From assembly GCA_048941015.1 (NCBI GenBank), contig JBHLNZ010000020.1, positions 1 through 47,713 of the forward strand: a stretch of DNA of 47,713 nucleotides. Direction: 5' to 3'. Origin of the DNA: Promethearchaeota archaeon. GTDB taxonomy: Archaea > Asgardarchaeota > Lokiarchaeia > Sigyniarchaeales > SOKP01. Positions 2,950 through 7,996 of the stretch are shown piece by piece. The notes beneath the pieces are model-generated. The model saw only the letters and a program-made list of their open reading frames with translations, was not told the origin of the DNA and ran no database searches. The position numbers and the translations under genes are program-made. The first letter of the stretch is position 1. Each line of letters opens with the position of its first letter.

Positions 2950-3106
2950 GATTATAAATTTTCAAAATAAGAGCTGTTTTTTAAGTTTCTTATTTAATTC
3001 TAAAAAGAACATGTTAATATTAAATCGATAGGAAGCAAGCCTATTGTCCATCTCTCACTAAAATTTTTTTGAAAGATATCATTCAATTTTTCGATTTATT
3101 ACTTAT

Positions 3107-3135: not shown

Positions 3136-3202
3136 TTCCATATTTTTTGCGTATTAATGATTTAAACTTTGCAATATTTAATCTATTTTTCACTTTTTCT
3201 CA

Positions 3203-3568
3203 TCAACACCCAACATCTGGTTGCAATTGAATCCTACTGTCAGGATATAAATCAAAATAAATGTTATCACGAATTGGATTAAATTTTTTCATAACCCCAT
3301 TTTCATTAGGGCCATAAGCAAAAATTCCTACGTCTTCATATATCTTATCTTCTTCAATATTTACGAGTAATTGCATATAATTATGGATATATCCTTCATT
3401 AATAGGGAAGATATAATCAGTTGTATTTTGCATCTCTAATTTGTCAACTAAAGCTAGACACTCGATAAACGTAGCATCATCCTTTACAAGAAGATTATAT
3501 TCTTTACCTTTTTGTAGTCCTTTAATAGGTAGACTAATTTCAAACGTAATTTTTTTAACTATTACCAC
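3203..3568 (-). CDS. Putative beta-grasp (MoaD/SAMP/Urm1-like) protein ending in Gly-Cys
   Basis: Pattern KITFEI...LLVKDDATFIECL...QLLVN...DLYPDSRIQLQPDVGC resembles the ThiS/MoaD C-terminus (L..GD.I.I.P.V.GG), with GC in place of GG. Confidence 0.55.
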   Translation of the reverse strand: MVIVKKITFEISLPIKGLQKGKEYNLLVKDDATFIECLALVDKLEMQNTTDYIFPINEGYIHNYMQLLVNIEEDKIYEDVGIFAYGPNENGVMKKFNPIRDNIYFDLYPDSRIQLQPDVGC

Positions 3569-3593
3569 CTTTTTTTGGAATTTTAATAATAAT

Positions 3594-3869
3594 TTAAATT
3601 AACCCCCTCTCTTTTAATAGATCAGGTAAATCTCTTTTTAGCAGATAAGATGTAGTATATTTTTTATCTCCGTCAACCATTACACAATTTCCGTGTAAGT
3701 TTAAGTTTCTTGCTTCATCAGAATTTAAATTTTTGGTGTTATATTTGATATATTTCATGTATGGAGTAAGTACTTCAAAAATTCTGTTCATAAATTTATC
3801 CCATTCACAAGCACATGCGTCTAGTGGAATATAAATTTCTACTTTTAACTTATTATCTATCTCATTCAA
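3594..3869 (-). CDS. Small thioredoxin-fold CxC protein, ArsD-metallochaperone-like (91 aa)
   Basis: Probable start TTG 3869 after GGTG SD; the ORF-track extension overlaps the ferredoxin gene. KVEIYIPLDACAC and NCVMVDG parallel ArsD IFDPAMCC and LLLDG. Confidence 0.55.
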   Translation of the reverse strand: MNEIDNKLKVEIYIPLDACACEWDKFMNRIFEVLTPYMKYIKYNTKNLNSDEARNLNLHGNCVMVDGDKKYTTSYLLKRDLPDLLKERGLI

Positions 3870-3909
3870 AATAGACACCAATATTATTTGAACATTCTTT
3901 ATGCGATTT

Positions 3910-4239
3910 TTAACCGCAGTTACACGATTTCTTCTCGTTTTTAGCACGAGCTCTTGCATTCCATAAGCAACCACATCCTTCAATTTCTTGCATAATAATT
4001 GCTTGGGTTGGACAATTTCTACTGCATGCACTACATTCTGTACAGAGCTCAGGATTATTAATTTCGAACTTACCATCACTATTTGATACAGGGAGTCCAA
4101 AAGGACATATTTCTCCACATAACCCACATCCAGTGCATCTTGAAGGTTCGATAAAAATCTTAATATCTAAAGCTTTGAATATATTCTCTAAAGAACTTGT
4201 TCCACAACAAGAGTCTTCTTTTATTTCTACCATACTCAT
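3910..4239 (-). CDS. hgcB: 2x[4Fe-4S] ferredoxin, HgcB-like
   Basis: CTGCGLCGEICP and CTECSACSRNCP (HgcB C(M/I)ECGAC-like), then EGCGC and a Cys-rich tail SCNCG; directly downstream of the hgcA-like gene. Confidence 0.75.
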   Translation of the reverse strand: MSMVEIKEDSCCGTSSLENIFKALDIKIFIEPSRCTGCGLCGEICPFGLPVSNSDGKFEINNPELCTECSACSRNCPTQAIIMQEIEGCGCLWNARARAKNEKKSCNCG

Positions 4240-4300
4240 CCTTTTTTATATTTTTATGATTTTTATTTTTATTTTAATTTTTATTTTTTTGTCTTACATT

Positions 4301-5959
4301 TTAAAAATATATTATTCCAATTACTAAACATAAAATCGAGATAATTAATAAGGTTAGATTAATTTTTCTGAAAACAGGATATTCGATTTGAATTTCTCGA
4401 GGGCTTGTAGCCATAGTATAACCACTAAATGACATAGTTGAAAAGAAACTGATCCAAAAGTAAAAAACGATACTCCATAAGATCTTAAAGATTGAATTTT
4501 GAATGAAGAGATTGATTAAACTTAAAATGATAACATTAAGTGTTCCGAAAAATATACTTTTGTATAAAAATTTCCTTGTGAATTTAGAAAATGGAAATAA
4601 GTATGCAATTATTACATTAGTTATTATAATCCAAATTGCTAATTCTAGAACCCACCATAATTTATTCATCCAGTTTAAGGCAATCAATATAATTGTTAAT
4701 CCTAATAATGGATACAGAAAAATTTTTCTAAATAAAAATGTTGTATGAGTAATAAATGCACGACTTCGGTGTGGAATTGTAAATTTAGCTAGTTTCATTT
4801 TTTCAGGTTTTTTATTAGGTTTATCTTTTAAATAATTAGGAATATCTTTTGACCATACTGGCCCATATTTAATTTTATAAGGAAATTCTTTAGAGTCTAT
4901 TCTAAGTTGTGGAATGGCAACGCCTCCTGCAGATAATTGAGGAAGAATTAAAGTCCTATTTTCAGTAAAGTTTTGAATTCCTGTTGCTCTAATTGCTTCT
5001 ATAAGTTGGTTATTTCCAAAATCATTACCGCGAGCAGCACACCATACATTAATTCCATTAGAATCAACACATAAAACCCATGCATCAATACTTTTGATGT
5101 TTCGCATTACATTGATATAAGTATAATCATAATTTGCAGTAACAATAATAGGAGAATCTTTATCAGGATTCCCTGATTTATATACTCCGGGCTCAATAGG
5201 CACCCTATCAATTTGTCCCGTAAATAAACACCTATATATTCGAAATTGAGATGATAGCCCTTTAAACTTTCTCTGTTCAGGGAAATAATAACCGGGTTCG
5301 TTATCATTATTAAATATAGCTTTTTTCAGTACAATAGCCTTGATAGTACCATGTTTCCATTCCTTTTGTTCAGCAATTTCAAATCCGATCGGTTGTATAT
5401 AATTGAAAAACCATTTTAGGAGAAAGGTACTTTTTAATTTAAGTCTTCTAAGTTTTTTCCTGTACCACCATCTCTTAACATGGAAAGCTAACTTCCAAAA
5501 ACCAGAAGGAACAAATTCAGCTGCTAAAATCAAAATCCCATTTTTTTTTAATGCTTTCCAAGAATTTCGGAGAAAAATTTGTTGTTCAAATGGTCGCAAT
5601 TCAGAGAGCATGAATTTACTAACAATTATATCCTGCGATTGTTCTTCTACTGGTAAATCTATGAATGAGCCAATTTGATAAGTAAGCGATCCCTGTTTTA
5701 AATCAGAAGGATAATTTTTCATCGCATAATCAATCATTTCAAAGTTAATATCTATTGCTTTAATATTATTTCCTTTATAGGCTAATTTTGTTGCTAGTGA
5801 TCCTGTACCACAACCTACTTCTAATATTGAGTTTGCTGAATTAATTTTTTCAATAATCCAATCTTCTACTTTTTTATTCACACCTTTAGTAAGAGCTGTG
5901 AATTTTGAATCATATGATTCTGGCTCTTCTTCCAGTTTACGCATGTATACTACTGCCAA
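4301..5959 (-). CDS. hgcA: Fusion of class I SAM-dependent methyltransferase with HgcA-like corrinoid domain and C-terminal TM bundle
   Basis: Motif I LEVGCGTG. Corrinoid domain IEPGVY..GNP...SPIIVTANY, GINVWCAARG (NVWCAARG at 5027-5050), LILPQL, YGPV..DIP.YL. About 5 TM helices ending MSFSGYT..TS....E, like HgcA MNFTG.T..TS. Confidence 0.8.
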   Translation of the reverse strand: MAVVYMRKLEEEPESYDSKFTALTKGVNKKVEDWIIEKINSANSILEVGCGTGSLATKLAYKGNNIKAIDINFEMIDYAMKNYPSDLKQGSLTYQIGSFIDLPVEEQSQDIIVSKFMLSELRPFEQQIFLRNSWKALKKNGILILAAEFVPSGFWKLAFHVKRWWYRKKLRRLKLKSTFLLKWFFNYIQPIGFEIAEQKEWKHGTIKAIVLKKAIFNNDNEPGYYFPEQRKFKGLSSQFRIYRCLFTGQIDRVPIEPGVYKSGNPDKDSPIIVTANYDYTYINVMRNIKSIDAWVLCVDSNGINVWCAARGNDFGNNQLIEAIRATGIQNFTENRTLILPQLSAGGVAIPQLRIDSKEFPYKIKYGPVWSKDIPNYLKDKPNKKPEKMKLAKFTIPHRSRAFITHTTFLFRKIFLYPLLGLTIILIALNWMNKLWWVLELAIWIIITNVIIAYLFPFSKFTRKFLYKSIFFGTLNVIILSLINLFIQNSIFKILWSIVFYFWISFFSTMSFSGYTMATSPREIQIEYPVFRKINLTLLIISILCLVIGIIYF

Positions 5960-6011
5960 TTTTTTCCAACCATACCTTTTTCTTAAATTTAATATAAAAA
6001 AAATGCTAAAT

Positions 6012-7097
6012 TTATTTCCAAAATCCTTTCTTTCTAAGGTATTTTCCTAAATAAACTATGGAAAGCATTACTGGAACTTCCCAGAATAAACCCATTGTTG
6101 TTCCCAAAGCAGCTATAGATCCGATTCCATATATAGCAATAGCAGTGGCGATTGCAATCTCGAAATGACTTGAAGAACCTATTATTACTGTGATTACTGC
6201 TTCACGATACTTCAATTTAAATAGTTTCGTTATTATAACATTATAACCAACAACTATAACAAAACCCACTAAGAGAGGAACTGAAACTAATAGTAATAAA
6301 TCGGGATTATGTATTAAAACATCACCATTTAAAGAAAACAATACGACTAGTGTTGTTAGTAAAGCTACTATTGATATTTTGCCCACAAAGGGTCGATAAG
6401 TATCATTAAACCAATCCAATCCTTTTGAAGAAACGATTATTCTCTTACTTATTATTCCTAAAAATAATGGTAAACCGATAAAAAATATCAACGATATTAG
6501 TAAAAGCCACGTATTTATTGGAATATTTTTAATTCCCGTTAATAAGGAAACCATACCAACATAACCGAAAATTATAGTGATCGTATTTAAACTGGTGGTG
6601 ATTACATTTTGCTCTTGGTTTCCTTTTGCCATCCAACCCCACACTAATACCATTGCAGTACATGGAGAACTGGACAATAAAATAATCGCAACTGATAGTT
6701 GTCTCATAGTTTCCGAAGACCCGGGAAGAAAAATATTGACCATTGCTAAACCAACGAATGGTGCTATTAACCAATTAGAAACTATAGTCATTATTATTGG
6801 TTTTGGGTTTCTCCCCAATTTTTTTAATTCAGAAGCTTGAATATTTAGCATTGCAGGATACATCATTAAAAAAAGGCATATACCTATAGGGATTGAGATT
6901 CCACCAATCTGTAATGCATCAATAGTTTCGCTAATTTGTGGGATTAACTGAGATAATATTATTCCAGTTATTATGCATAAAATTACCCAAAGAGGCAACA
7001 ATTTTTCAAAATAGTTAATTTTCCTCGATTTTACTTCTTCGGTTCGTCCTTCATCAGCTTTTTTAATTAAATTGCTTTCTAAATTTTCTTCAACCAT
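6012..7097 (-). CDS. acr3: Arsenite efflux permease, Acr3 family
   Basis: LMMYP, NWLIAPF, SPCTAMVLVW (catalytic Cys), SSHFEIAIA motifs; about 10 TM. Confidence 0.93.
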   Translation of the reverse strand: MVEENLESNLIKKADEGRTEEVKSRKINYFEKLLPLWVILCIITGIILSQLIPQISETIDALQIGGISIPIGICLFLMMYPAMLNIQASELKKLGRNPKPIIMTIVSNWLIAPFVGLAMVNIFLPGSSETMRQLSVAIILLSSSPCTAMVLVWGWMAKGNQEQNVITTSLNTITIIFGYVGMVSLLTGIKNIPINTWLLLISLIFFIGLPLFLGIISKRIIVSSKGLDWFNDTYRPFVGKISIVALLTTLVVLFSLNGDVLIHNPDLLLLVSVPLLVGFVIVVGYNVIITKLFKLKYREAVITVIIGSSSHFEIAIATAIAIYGIGSIAALGTTMGLFWEVPVMLSIVYLGKYLRKKGFWK

Positions 7098-7141
7098 TTT
7101 TAATCAAAAATTATGATTAGGGCTTGAGTTACTAATAGAGT

Positions 7142-7171
7142 GATTCAAATAAAAATATTCCGATTTGAATC
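7142..7171. promoter_or_regulatory. Inverted repeat, candidate ArsR operator
   Basis: GATTCAAAT (7142-7150), 12-nt spacer, ATTTGAATC (7163-7171), in the acr3/arsR divergent intergenic region. Confidence 0.5.
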
Positions 7172-7247
7172 CAATTTATTCGATATGGGTAAAATTTTTA
7201 TAATTTTATAGCTTCTATTAAGATAATAATAACGAGAAAGAATTCTA

Positions 7248-7640
7248 ATGAAACAAAAAAGGAAATCAGAAATTAAAGGAATGCTATGTAGCTGTGAGGA
7301 ATGCATCGATAGTGAATATATATTTAAAAATTTGCAAAATTTTGGTTATAATTTAAAACACGATGATAATTTCAATAGCATTTTAAACATTTCAAATGCT
7401 TTGGGTAATAAAGAACGATTAACAATACTATTTTCATTAAAAGAAAAAGCTCGTTGCGTTTGTGAATTAGAAGCTATATTAGACAAATCTCAACCGTCAA
7501 TATCTCATCATTTGCGAGAGCTTGAAAAAGCAGATTTAATTAGGGGCTGGAAAAAAGGTAAATTCACCTATTATTCATTTTTCAAGGATGAATTAAAAAA
7601 ATATTTAGATCTTTTAAATCGGGAATTTAATTCAATTTAA
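7248..7640 (+). CDS. arsR: ArsR/SmtB-family metalloregulator
   Basis: ALGNKERL.IL, CVCEL (alpha3 CxC site), SQPSISHHLREL; extra N-terminal CSCEEC. Confidence 0.9.
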   Translation: MKQKRKSEIKGMLCSCEECIDSEYIFKNLQNFGYNLKHDDNFNSILNISNALGNKERLTILFSLKEKARCVCELEAILDKSQPSISHHLRELEKADLIRGWKKGKFTYYSFFKDELKKYLDLLNREFNSI

Positions 7641-7747
7641 ATTCAAAATTCAAATAAATATTAGTTTTTTATCTATAAACTATAAATATTAAGTTTAAAT
7701 GGCAAAATTCGTATTTTTATGGTATAAATAATTTCATGTGAAAAATT

Positions 7748-7996
7748 TTGCCTAAACCAGTACCAGACATTGAAGATAATTTAAAAGTGTGTCGAAAATC
7801 TTGTGGATTATGTCCCTCGTTCAAACTAAATAAATTAAATGAATTTGAACCTCATGTCTTGTTCTGTGCAAGAGGCAAAACTTCGATACCTAAAGAGCAA
7901 GTTGTTAATAAGGGATGCAGTTGTTTTGGTTGCGAGTTGTTTTCTAAATATGAATTAGAGAAAGGTTATTTCTGTATGCCTTGGAAACAAAAATGA
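7748..7996 (+). CDS. Small Cys-rich protein, DUF2769-like
   Basis: C...C..CPSF, LFCARGKT, GCSCFGC, YFC pattern. Confidence 0.65.
   Translation: MPKPVPDIEDNLKVCRKSCGLCPSFKLNKLNEFEPHVLFCARGKTSIPKEQVVNKGCSCFGCELFSKYELEKGYFCMPWKQK

Follow-up and report, generated by a model that had tools for sequence, protein, structure and literature searches.

A methyltransferase-fused HgcA-like corrinoid protein and a predicted Cys-Sec-Sec selenoprotein in an ArsR/Acr3 gene cluster of a Promethearchaeota archaeon

Purified HgcAB, the mercury-methylating pair of corrinoid protein and ferredoxin, uses S-adenosylmethionine (SAM) as the methyl donor, and the reaction proceeds through Cys-ligated methylcob(III)alamin (PMC11588087). 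The purpose of HgcAB-type enzymes is debated, and the link between hgcAB and arsenic so far rests on regulation in one bacterium, Pseudodesulfovibrio mercurii ND132, in which ArsR controls hgcAB and responds to arsenic (10.1101/2022.10.17.512643). The presence of ars genes adjoining bona fide hgcAB in bacteria has been published (PMC10349881, 10.1101/2022.10.17.512643), and CpaM and HgcAB-like proteins (NF043040 and NF043039) are already known as NCBIfam annotation families without an assigned function. In this study, we analysed an ArsR/Acr3 gene cluster in a 47,713-nt stretch of DNA (hereafter, the window) from a Promethearchaeota archaeon (GCA_048941015.1, contig JBHLNZ010000020.1), whose genome is ~95% complete. 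In this cluster, a CpaM-like methyltransferase fused to an HgcA-like corrinoid protein and an HgcB-like ferredoxin are encoded between the arsenite efflux gene acr3 and the genes of two small proteins, the second of which is predicted to contain two adjacent selenocysteine (Sec) residues.

Based on the evidence described below, it was hypothesised that the window carries an ars cluster controlled by an ArsR-type regulator and composed of three separately conserved modules, of which the corrinoid module would transfer a methyl group from SAM to cobalamin and then to a soft metal(loid). We hold this reading tentatively, with somewhat less than even confidence. The family-wide analysis of the modules, the count of universally conserved TGA codons, the finding that fusion to a methyltransferase strictly coincides with loss of the GK residues, and the inventory of ArsM and ArsC are new here. 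Within an incomplete coverage of the literature, no publication was found on CpaM, on Asgard methyltransferase-fused HgcA or its placement in an ars operon, on HgcA-type arsenic methylation, or on the Cys-Sec-Sec protein.

The fusion protein and its ferredoxin share several features with HgcA/HgcB (PMC11588087): the cap helix of the corrinoid-binding domain bears a Cys residue, the membrane domain comprises multiple helices, the partner is a 2x[4Fe-4S] ferredoxin with additional Cys residues, SAM probably supplies the methyl group, and ArsR or ars genes are often found nearby. They differ in the N-terminal SAM-methyltransferase domain, in RG instead of GK in the cap helix, in profile scores below the cut-offs, and in the placement of the fusion outside the canonical clade. 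Residues 253-547 of the fusion matched the HgcA profile NF040863 with 169.2 bits (cut-off 275; model positions 30-321 of 325), and the same part matched NF043039, the HgcAB-like fusion protein family, with 181 bits (cut-off 285) and PF03599 with 57 bits. As in HgcA, the corrinoid-binding domain is followed by a C-terminal transmembrane domain, and the cap helix has an invariant Cys. The cap helix itself, NVWCAARG, was invariant in 17 orthologues of ~60-87% identity and departs from the canonical N(V/I)WCA(A/G)GK. Among 80 related loci, NVWCAAGK was found in 41/41 unfused HgcA loci, while GK was missing from every methyltransferase-fused form; the cap helices of Asgard and Thorarchaeial fusions end in ARG, and those of most bacterial fusions (Chloroflexota, Poribacteria, and others) in AGG. 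In a quick maximum-likelihood tree with Shimodaira-Hasegawa-like approximate likelihood ratio test (SH-aLRT) support, canonical HgcA formed one clade (99) with the window protein outside it. The window protein fell in an Asgard clade (99) that was sister to the Thorarchaeial fusions (95), and this group stood beside the bacterial fusions and the HgcAB-like protein of the same genome (89). The tree agrees with a published two-clade picture of HgcA, in which Asgard sequences lie on the 'fused HgcAB' side (PMC10083202). Because the cap helix lacks GK, the scores fall below the NCBIfam cut-offs, and the placement is outside the canonical clade, the corrinoid protein is classified from its sequence as an HgcA-like paralogue of the mercury methylase, not as canonical HgcA.

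CpaM (NF043040) was the best NCBIfam match of the fused methyltransferase domain, with 136.8 bits (cut-off 180) over model positions 2-215 of 216; a bacterial fusion (L020; L-numbers denote loci related to the fusion gene, fetched in a tblastn-based locus search) scored 229.6 bits against the same profile. The SAM-binding motif GCGTG and the acidic residue following it were invariant in the 17 orthologues, and the association of CpaM with an HgcA-family corrinoid protein takes the form of a fusion here. Against the ArsM profile NF008823, the domain scored 23.6 bits, below the membership cut-off of 263. The ferredoxin has two CxxCxxCxxxCP motifs and a GCGC motif, as does HgcB, and a Cys-rich tail that reads CNCG in the window and CCG in most orthologues; its score against NF040864 (50.5 bits) is below the cut-off of 99. 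The HgcB-like gene followed the fusion gene in 14/14 close orthologous loci. The original prediction had described a complete corrinoid methylation module. A corrinoid protein, a fused SAM methyltransferase, and an HgcB-like ferredoxin are indeed encoded within the ArsR/Acr3 cluster, but the HgcA label has to be weakened to HgcA-like. From these sequence features, it is plausible that the fusion and the ferredoxin form a self-contained methyl-transfer module.

The CpaM and HgcAB-like families are among the known systems closest to the corrinoid module of the window. They likewise combine a methyltransferase of class I with a corrinoid protein of the HgcA family and a ferredoxin of the HgcB type, the canonical GK is missing throughout, and the window protein groups on the same side of the quick tree. 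They differ in that, in the window, the corrinoid protein is fused to the methyltransferase and not to the ferredoxin, the C-terminal transmembrane domain is kept, the ferredoxin is encoded by a separate gene, and the scores fall below both cut-offs (137 vs 180; 181 vs 285). A second corrinoid module is located on contig C92 of the same genome (L089:1246-3080), where a stand-alone CpaM (244 bits vs 180) is followed by an HgcAB-like fusion protein (372 vs 285) with the cap helix NVWCGACG, compared with NVWCAARG in the window. It adjoins a gene of the deazaflavin-dependent nitroreductase family, and no ars gene was present within the 3.8 kb examined. With this pair and the window fusion, the genome therefore has two differently fused versions of one three-part system.

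The homology to HgcA and HgcB extends over the corrinoid, transmembrane, and ferredoxin parts, and the Co-ligating Cys, the residues N-V-W-C-A-A, and the Cys-rich HgcB tail are retained. Together with the published ars genes beside bona fide hgcAB, these features would suit a true mercury methylase that acts on Hg(II) like HgcAB and has ArsR and the ars genes as a merely regulatory context, as in ND132. We consider this explanation quite unlikely, given the loss of GK from every methyltransferase-fused form against its presence in all 41 unfused loci, the scores below both the HgcA (169 vs 275) and HgcB cut-offs, and the placement outside the canonical clade (SH-aLRT 99). Besides, only one member of the 'fused' side has been tested, the fused HgcAB of P. 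furiosus, and it did not methylate Hg, as far as PMC10083202 relates it in citing Podar 2015. Surveys of hgcA by the strict cap-helix motif thus rightly exclude the fusion, and looser surveys by hidden Markov models may miscount it as a mercury methylator.

The last gene of the cluster extends further than had been supposed. Its apparent open reading frame (ORF) ends with Val-Gly-Cys, followed by TGA-TGA at 3200-3205, and a ubiquitin-like protein with a terminal Gly-Cys, encoded by a gene ending at 3203, had been proposed. TGA-TGA was present in all five orthologous loci with sequence (L001, L003, L005, L009, and L014), and the frame was conserved for ~38 codons further; it ends with TAA in four of the five loci and with TGA (3083-3085) in the window. 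In metagenome proteins whose genes were called with TGA as Trp, the sequence likewise continues, and W-W stands at the site. When the read-through protein was searched against 61 genomes of the GTDB family of the window, it was found in 53, often as tandem paralogues. All ~75 family matches spanning the site contained two or three in-frame TGA codons, and the only three matches without TGA ended before residue 119. None of the homologues found had a Cys aligned at the Sec position, and the apparently full-length ones showed W-W (TGA called as Trp). A separate small gene for the part after TGA-TGA was also considered and rejected, since no start codon is available there in L009, the tail packs onto the domain in the predicted structure (predicted local distance difference test (pLDDT) of ~95), and TGA-TGA is universal. 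The frame is thus predicted to run through Sec-Sec to 161 residues, so that the Cys would not be terminal, and the unit extends to about 3025.

Directly after the stop, the window has a hairpin of the type named lokiSECIS after the eukaryotic selenocysteine insertion sequence (SECIS). The published format consists of AUGA, a 9-bp stem, an 11-nt loop with an A-rich start and a final G preceded by A, and GA (PMC4989117). The loop in the window is 12 nt long, begins with six A's, and ends with AG, followed by GA. The element occurred at the same position in L003, L005, L009, and L014, with an 11-nt loop and with stem changes that are one-sided and keep pairing; the window hairpin also fits the type-I SECIS model of PMC11227280. 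As a control in the same genome, a loose lokiSECIS pattern gave 76 matches in 7.2 Mb (both strands), and the matches most like that of the window lay right after three FlpD/VhuD genes (PF02662, 127-147 bits once TGA is read through), so that the window element has the format used by its own genome. The centroid fold gave the SECIS hairpin; the z-score of the minimum free energy was -0.38, which is not significant, and the covariation statistics on five SECIS sequences were uninformative since the sequences are too conserved. A search of Rfam detected a SECIS neither in the window nor behind the selD gene of the same genome; since the selD element was missed as well, Rfam is uninformative for lokiSECIS. 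In the second hairpin at 3025-3044, one compensatory change from A-U to G-C was seen in L003. The genome also encodes SepSecS (474.6 bits) and SelD (184.5 bits, with one in-frame TGA). Read from the sequence, the fifth gene is thus predicted to be a lokiSECIS-type selenoprotein gene with adjacent Sec-Sec.

Loki selenoprotein genes with lokiSECIS (those of SPS, VhuU, VhuD, and HdrA as well as of PrxL; PMC4989117; PMC11227280) have the same hairpin format right after the stop, and UGA also serves as the final stop in the window. Five Loki and seven Asgard selenoprotein families have been listed (PMC4989117, PMC11227280), and a Cys-Sec-Sec beta-grasp family is not among them. In contrast to the listed selenoproteins, the window protein is predicted to be a beta-grasp protein with two adjacent Sec, has no Cys homologue among those found, and is linked to acr3.

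An AlphaFold2 (AF2) model of the 161-residue product had a pLDDT of 88.5 and a predicted template modelling score of 0.86, with the post-Sec tail packed onto the domain. No Pfam or NCBIfam profile matched the sequence, and the beta-grasp part of the model matched SAMP1, CysO, and MoaD (Z 6.1-7.3, root-mean-square deviation (rmsd) ~3 A, 77-92 residues). In the model, Cys-Sec-Sec occupies the position where carriers of the SAMP1/CysO/MoaD type end in Gly-Gly. Compared with MoaD, ThiS, CysO, and SAMP, the predicted fold is alike and the reactive residues are placed at the C-terminal Gly-Gly position of the carriers, but the sequence there is Gly-Cys-Sec-Sec (Asp-Sec-Sec in L001 and L003), a packed helical tail of 38 residues follows, and a terminal Gly-Gly is lacking.

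Several further features of the selenoprotein genes were observed. Many genomes have two tandem paralogues of ~40% identity (L009:2641-3087; G195:C32:56529-57468; G220:C53:11393-12423), and one subgroup has a third in-frame TGA. A third TGA is also present in L005, at a position occupied by Gly or Ala in the others. In the window, the gene starts with a GTG that overlaps its own Shine-Dalgarno-like GGTGG (3566-3580), and several orthologues (L003, L005, and L009) have the conserved N-terminus without an in-frame upstream ATG, GTG, or TTG, which hints at a non-canonical start codon. On contig C31 of the same genome (~43579, minus strand), a short Cys-rich frame that contains several in-frame TGA codons precedes a hairpin in the lokiSECIS format (9-bp stem, 11-nt loop ending with AG); this frame may be a further small selenoprotein gene.

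The fourth gene had been labelled ArsD-like, a label that found no support in the profile searches: its product had no Pfam or NCBIfam match, including PF06953 at E-values up to 1, and PF06953 matched nothing in the genome. A search with the profile of the CxC protein found no relative in the PDB at the level of sequence. Among the 174 relatives found, every source name shown was an Asgard metagenome-assembled genome (MAG), and the CxC motif, which occupies the position of the thioredoxin CxxC, was invariant. The AF2 model (pLDDT 87.5) matched thioredoxins with Z of 9-10 and rmsd of 2.1-2.6 A over ~80 residues, the best match having Z 10.0 and rmsd 2.1 A over 78 residues, and ArsD was not among the top structural matches. 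Based on this model, the 91-residue product is assigned as a CxC protein of predicted thioredoxin fold. It has in common with ArsD a small (here predicted) thioredoxin fold, vicinal Cys residues at the N-terminus of helix 1, and an arsenite pump as a neighbour, and differs in having CxC instead of CC...C, in the lack of a Pfam ArsD match, and in that no arsA was seen in the cluster. In four genomes (G138:C103:9449-9703, G222:C8:18552-18812, G223:C267:4024-4278, and G205:C65:1282-1536), the CxC match forms the end of an open frame of ~372 codons, which suggests a fusion of the CxC protein to an upstream protein in one genus. The regions around CxC (3800-3835) and Cys-Sec-Sec (3176-3211) have a short pattern in common, C-x-C/U-E-x-x-K-x-x-N-R; the resemblance was not significant, with a probability of 1.9% in a profile comparison.

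Close orthologues of the fusion were found only in the GTDB family of the window (29 of the 41 genomes sampled), and fusions at 30-36% identity occurred in other Asgard families. acr3 lay directly upstream of the fusion gene, with a gap of 37-65 nt, in 12 of the 26 genomes with a close orthologue; these 12 were all genomes of the window's genus sampled in both searches that have the fusion gene, plus two of the neighbouring genus. Conservation of gene order, proposed as a check of the operon, thus held at about the level of the genus and not beyond it. The small proteins had a different distribution. acr3 was located within ~5 kb of a selenoprotein copy in ~41 of the 53 genomes, and at least 31 of 43 genomes had the CxC gene directly upstream of a copy of the selenoprotein gene, often as acr3-CxC-selenoprotein with nothing in between. 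From this co-occurrence and the position of the corrinoid pair behind acr3 in only the genus and two relatives, a unit of acr3, CxC, and selenoprotein genes is deduced, into which the corrinoid pair was inserted in the window's genus. Since the two small genes track acr3, their products would probably serve arsenite handling, not the corrinoid enzyme. The acr3-linked Cys-Sec-Sec protein points to selenium-based arsenic handling in these archaea.

The genes around other orthologues reinforce the arsenic context of the fusion: in L014, acr3 is separated from the fusion gene by arsM (347 bits); in L005, arsC comes after the selenoprotein gene; arsR is directly upstream on the same strand of the divergent Thorarchaeial fusions in five of six loci; and arsR and a flavin mononucleotide (FMN) reductase gene precede the orthologue in L008. 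The assignment as an ArsR/Acr3 cluster is supported.

The favoured explanation combines these observations as follows. The first module would consist of arsR, with its CVC site, and the DUF2769 gene, divergent from acr3. The second would be the CxC and Cys-Sec-Sec proteins, which accompany acr3 family-wide and may bind, reduce, or pass on arsenite for export. The third, inserted between acr3 and the second module in the window's genus, would be the CpaM-like methyltransferase fused to the membrane-anchored HgcA-like corrinoid protein, with the HgcB-like ferredoxin. In this module, a methyl group would pass from SAM to Co(I), either by the fused methyltransferase domain or by the corrinoid domain itself, the Cys-ligated methyl-Co(III) would hand it to a soft metal(loid), and the ferredoxin would re-reduce the cobalt. 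This scheme is compatible with SAM as the methyl donor of HgcAB. The gene context makes As(III)/Sb(III) the foremost candidate for the substrate, and a B12-based methylation of As/Sb appears plausible. The cluster amounts to a natural experiment, in that a distinct and strongly conserved paralogue with its own SAM-methyltransferase domain is located behind the sole arsenite pump in a whole genus. A more specific version, in which the fusion and the ferredoxin are a cobalamin-dependent arsenite/antimonite methylase beside ArsM, fed or relieved by the CxC and Cys-Sec-Sec proteins as a selenium-based carrier pair and coupled to export by Acr3, is unlikely in our estimation; if true, it would make metalloid methylation the native function of the HgcA family's non-canonical half.

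Several observations weigh against metal(loid) methyl transfer by the corrinoid module. The genome of the window has ArsM on contig C17 (353 bits, cut-off 263), and in L014 arsM is part of the same operon; the need for a second arsenite methylase is therefore not obvious. The Cys triad of ArsM is absent from the fused methyltransferase domain in the alignment of 17 orthologues. The corrinoid pair does not adjoin acr3 in 14 of the 26 genomes, no ars gene flanked it in six fetched loci (L002, L004, L006, L007, L011, and L013), and its annotated neighbours in L013 are MarR, cupin, and MFS genes; its arsenic context is therefore lineage-specific. ND132, whose canonical HgcAB is regulated by ArsR, made no methylarsenicals (10.1101/2022.10.17.512643), and the result with P. 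furiosus described above counts in the same direction.

Such mobility of the module independently of acr3 would be expected if it performed a chemistry other than metal(loid) methylation, for example, the reductive removal of halogens from halomethanes, the removal of methyl groups from methylated metalloids or other methyl compounds, or the methylation of organic substrates, and its place in the ars operon were a secondary insertion of little functional meaning. The presence of ArsM, the second CpaM and HgcAB-like pair beside the nitroreductase-family gene on C92, and a report that HgcAB dechlorinates CCl4, from which a role in halomethane dehalogenation was proposed (10.64898/2026.04.26.720869), are in line with this explanation. 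However, ArsR-family genes recur beside very divergent fusions (the Thorarchaeial loci, L008, and L010), acr3 abuts the fusion gene in the 12 genomes mentioned above, and in HgcAB, the Cys-rich tail of the ferredoxin and the Cys-on cap helix are features connected with the handling of soft metals (PMC11588087). We regard a different chemistry as rather unlikely.

The original prediction had gone further and joined all parts into an ArsM-independent pathway, in which the CxC protein, the ferredoxin tail, and the terminal Cys of the beta-grasp protein deliver As(III), Sb, or Hg(II) to methylcobalamin as a thiol relay. The three proteins do have soft-metal motifs (CxC, a CC or CxC tail, and Cys-Sec-Sec) and are encoded in the same direction with short gaps, and the beta-grasp model is similar, with Z of ~7, to the beta domains with which transcobalamin and haptocorrin bind cobalamin. 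This score equals that of the carrier proteins and would be expected from the common beta-grasp fold, which is all that it shows. Moreover, most genomes without a corrinoid module at that locus show linkage of the CxC and selenoprotein genes to acr3, so that the relay is weakened, and independence from ArsM does not hold in a genome that encodes it. A full relay is, accordingly, very doubtful. No ArsC of either type was found in the ~95% complete genome; a role of the CxC and Sec proteins in arsenate reduction or in the hand-over of arsenite to Acr3 is thus a reasonable alternative.

The features of the cluster are listed in Table 1. As the original prediction had stated, ORFs, Pfam and NCBIfam profile searches, and direct reading of the DNA gave five co-oriented genes on the minus strand, divergent from arsR and a gene for a Cys-rich protein on the plus strand; the intergenic distances within the five are 52, 61, 40, and 25 nt, in accordance with the 25-61 nt described for 3203-7996.

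Table 1. Coordinates in the window of the ArsR/Acr3 cluster and its associated elements
Feature	Position	Strand	Evidence or remark
Cys-rich DUF2769 protein, 82 aa	7748..7996	+	Downstream of arsR; PF10967 43.9 bits (cut-off 22.8)
ArsR/SmtB metalloregulator, CVC site and N-terminal Cys cluster	7248..7640	+	PF01022 56.6 bits; NF033788 71.5 bits (cut-off 55)
Inverted repeat, candidate operator	7142..7171		Perfect 9 nt, 12-nt spacer, arsR-acr3 intergenic region
acr3, ACR3-family arsenite efflux permease	6012..7097	-	TIGR00832 267 bits; PF01758 124.8 bits
Methyltransferase-HgcA-like fusion gene, 552 residues	4301..5959	-	ORF and profiles
CpaM-like class-I SAM methyltransferase domain, residues 3-212 of fusion	5324..5953	-	NF043040 136.8 bits; Methyltransf_11/25/31
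HgcA-like corrinoid-binding and C-terminal transmembrane domain, residues 253-552 of fusion	4304..5203	-	NF040863, NF043039, PF03599
Variant cap helix NVWCAARG	5027..5050	-	Co-ligating Cys retained; RG instead of canonical GK
HgcB-like ferredoxin	3910..4239	-	NF040864 50.5 bits; Fer4 families
Thioredoxin-fold CxC protein, 91 aa (predicted structure)	3594..3869	-	TTG start within longer spurious ORF
Predicted beta-grasp Cys-Sec-Sec selenoprotein gene, 161 residues	3083..3568	-	TGA-TGA 3200-3205; true stop TGA 3083-3085
lokiSECIS, eukaryote-like SECIS	3047..3082	-	AUGA, stem of 9 bp, A-rich loop of 12 nt with AG at its end, then GA
Second short hairpin, directly 3' of SECIS	3025..3044	-	Kept in 5/5 loci

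ArsR of the window scored above the cut-off of both ArsR profiles and has the CVC metalloid site in helix 3, from which arsenite sensing is predicted. The motif R-C-V-C-E-L-E was conserved in L003, L005, L008, L012, and L014, confirming the arsR as CVC-type. The 9-nt inverted-repeat pattern was not found in the orthologous loci and remains a candidate for an ArsR operator only. DUF2769 orthologues adjoin arsR in L003 and L005; the one in L003 (5715-5954, minus strand) has one in-frame stop inside the conserved region. acr3 is present as a sole copy in the genome (a single tblastn hit), and its product matches TIGR00832 over model positions 2-325 of 327, slightly below the equivalog cut-off of 282.8. 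In L014 (5227-5973), a DUF166 protein with a weak likeness to the DfsP (seleno)protein family (34.5 bits, cut-off 200) is encoded between arsR and acr3. In L012 (5921-7681), from a Promethearchaeum MAG, genes for a TlpA-like thioredoxin and a DsbD/CcdA-type membrane protein, another thiol-disulfide module, occupy the same slot between acr3 and the fusion gene.

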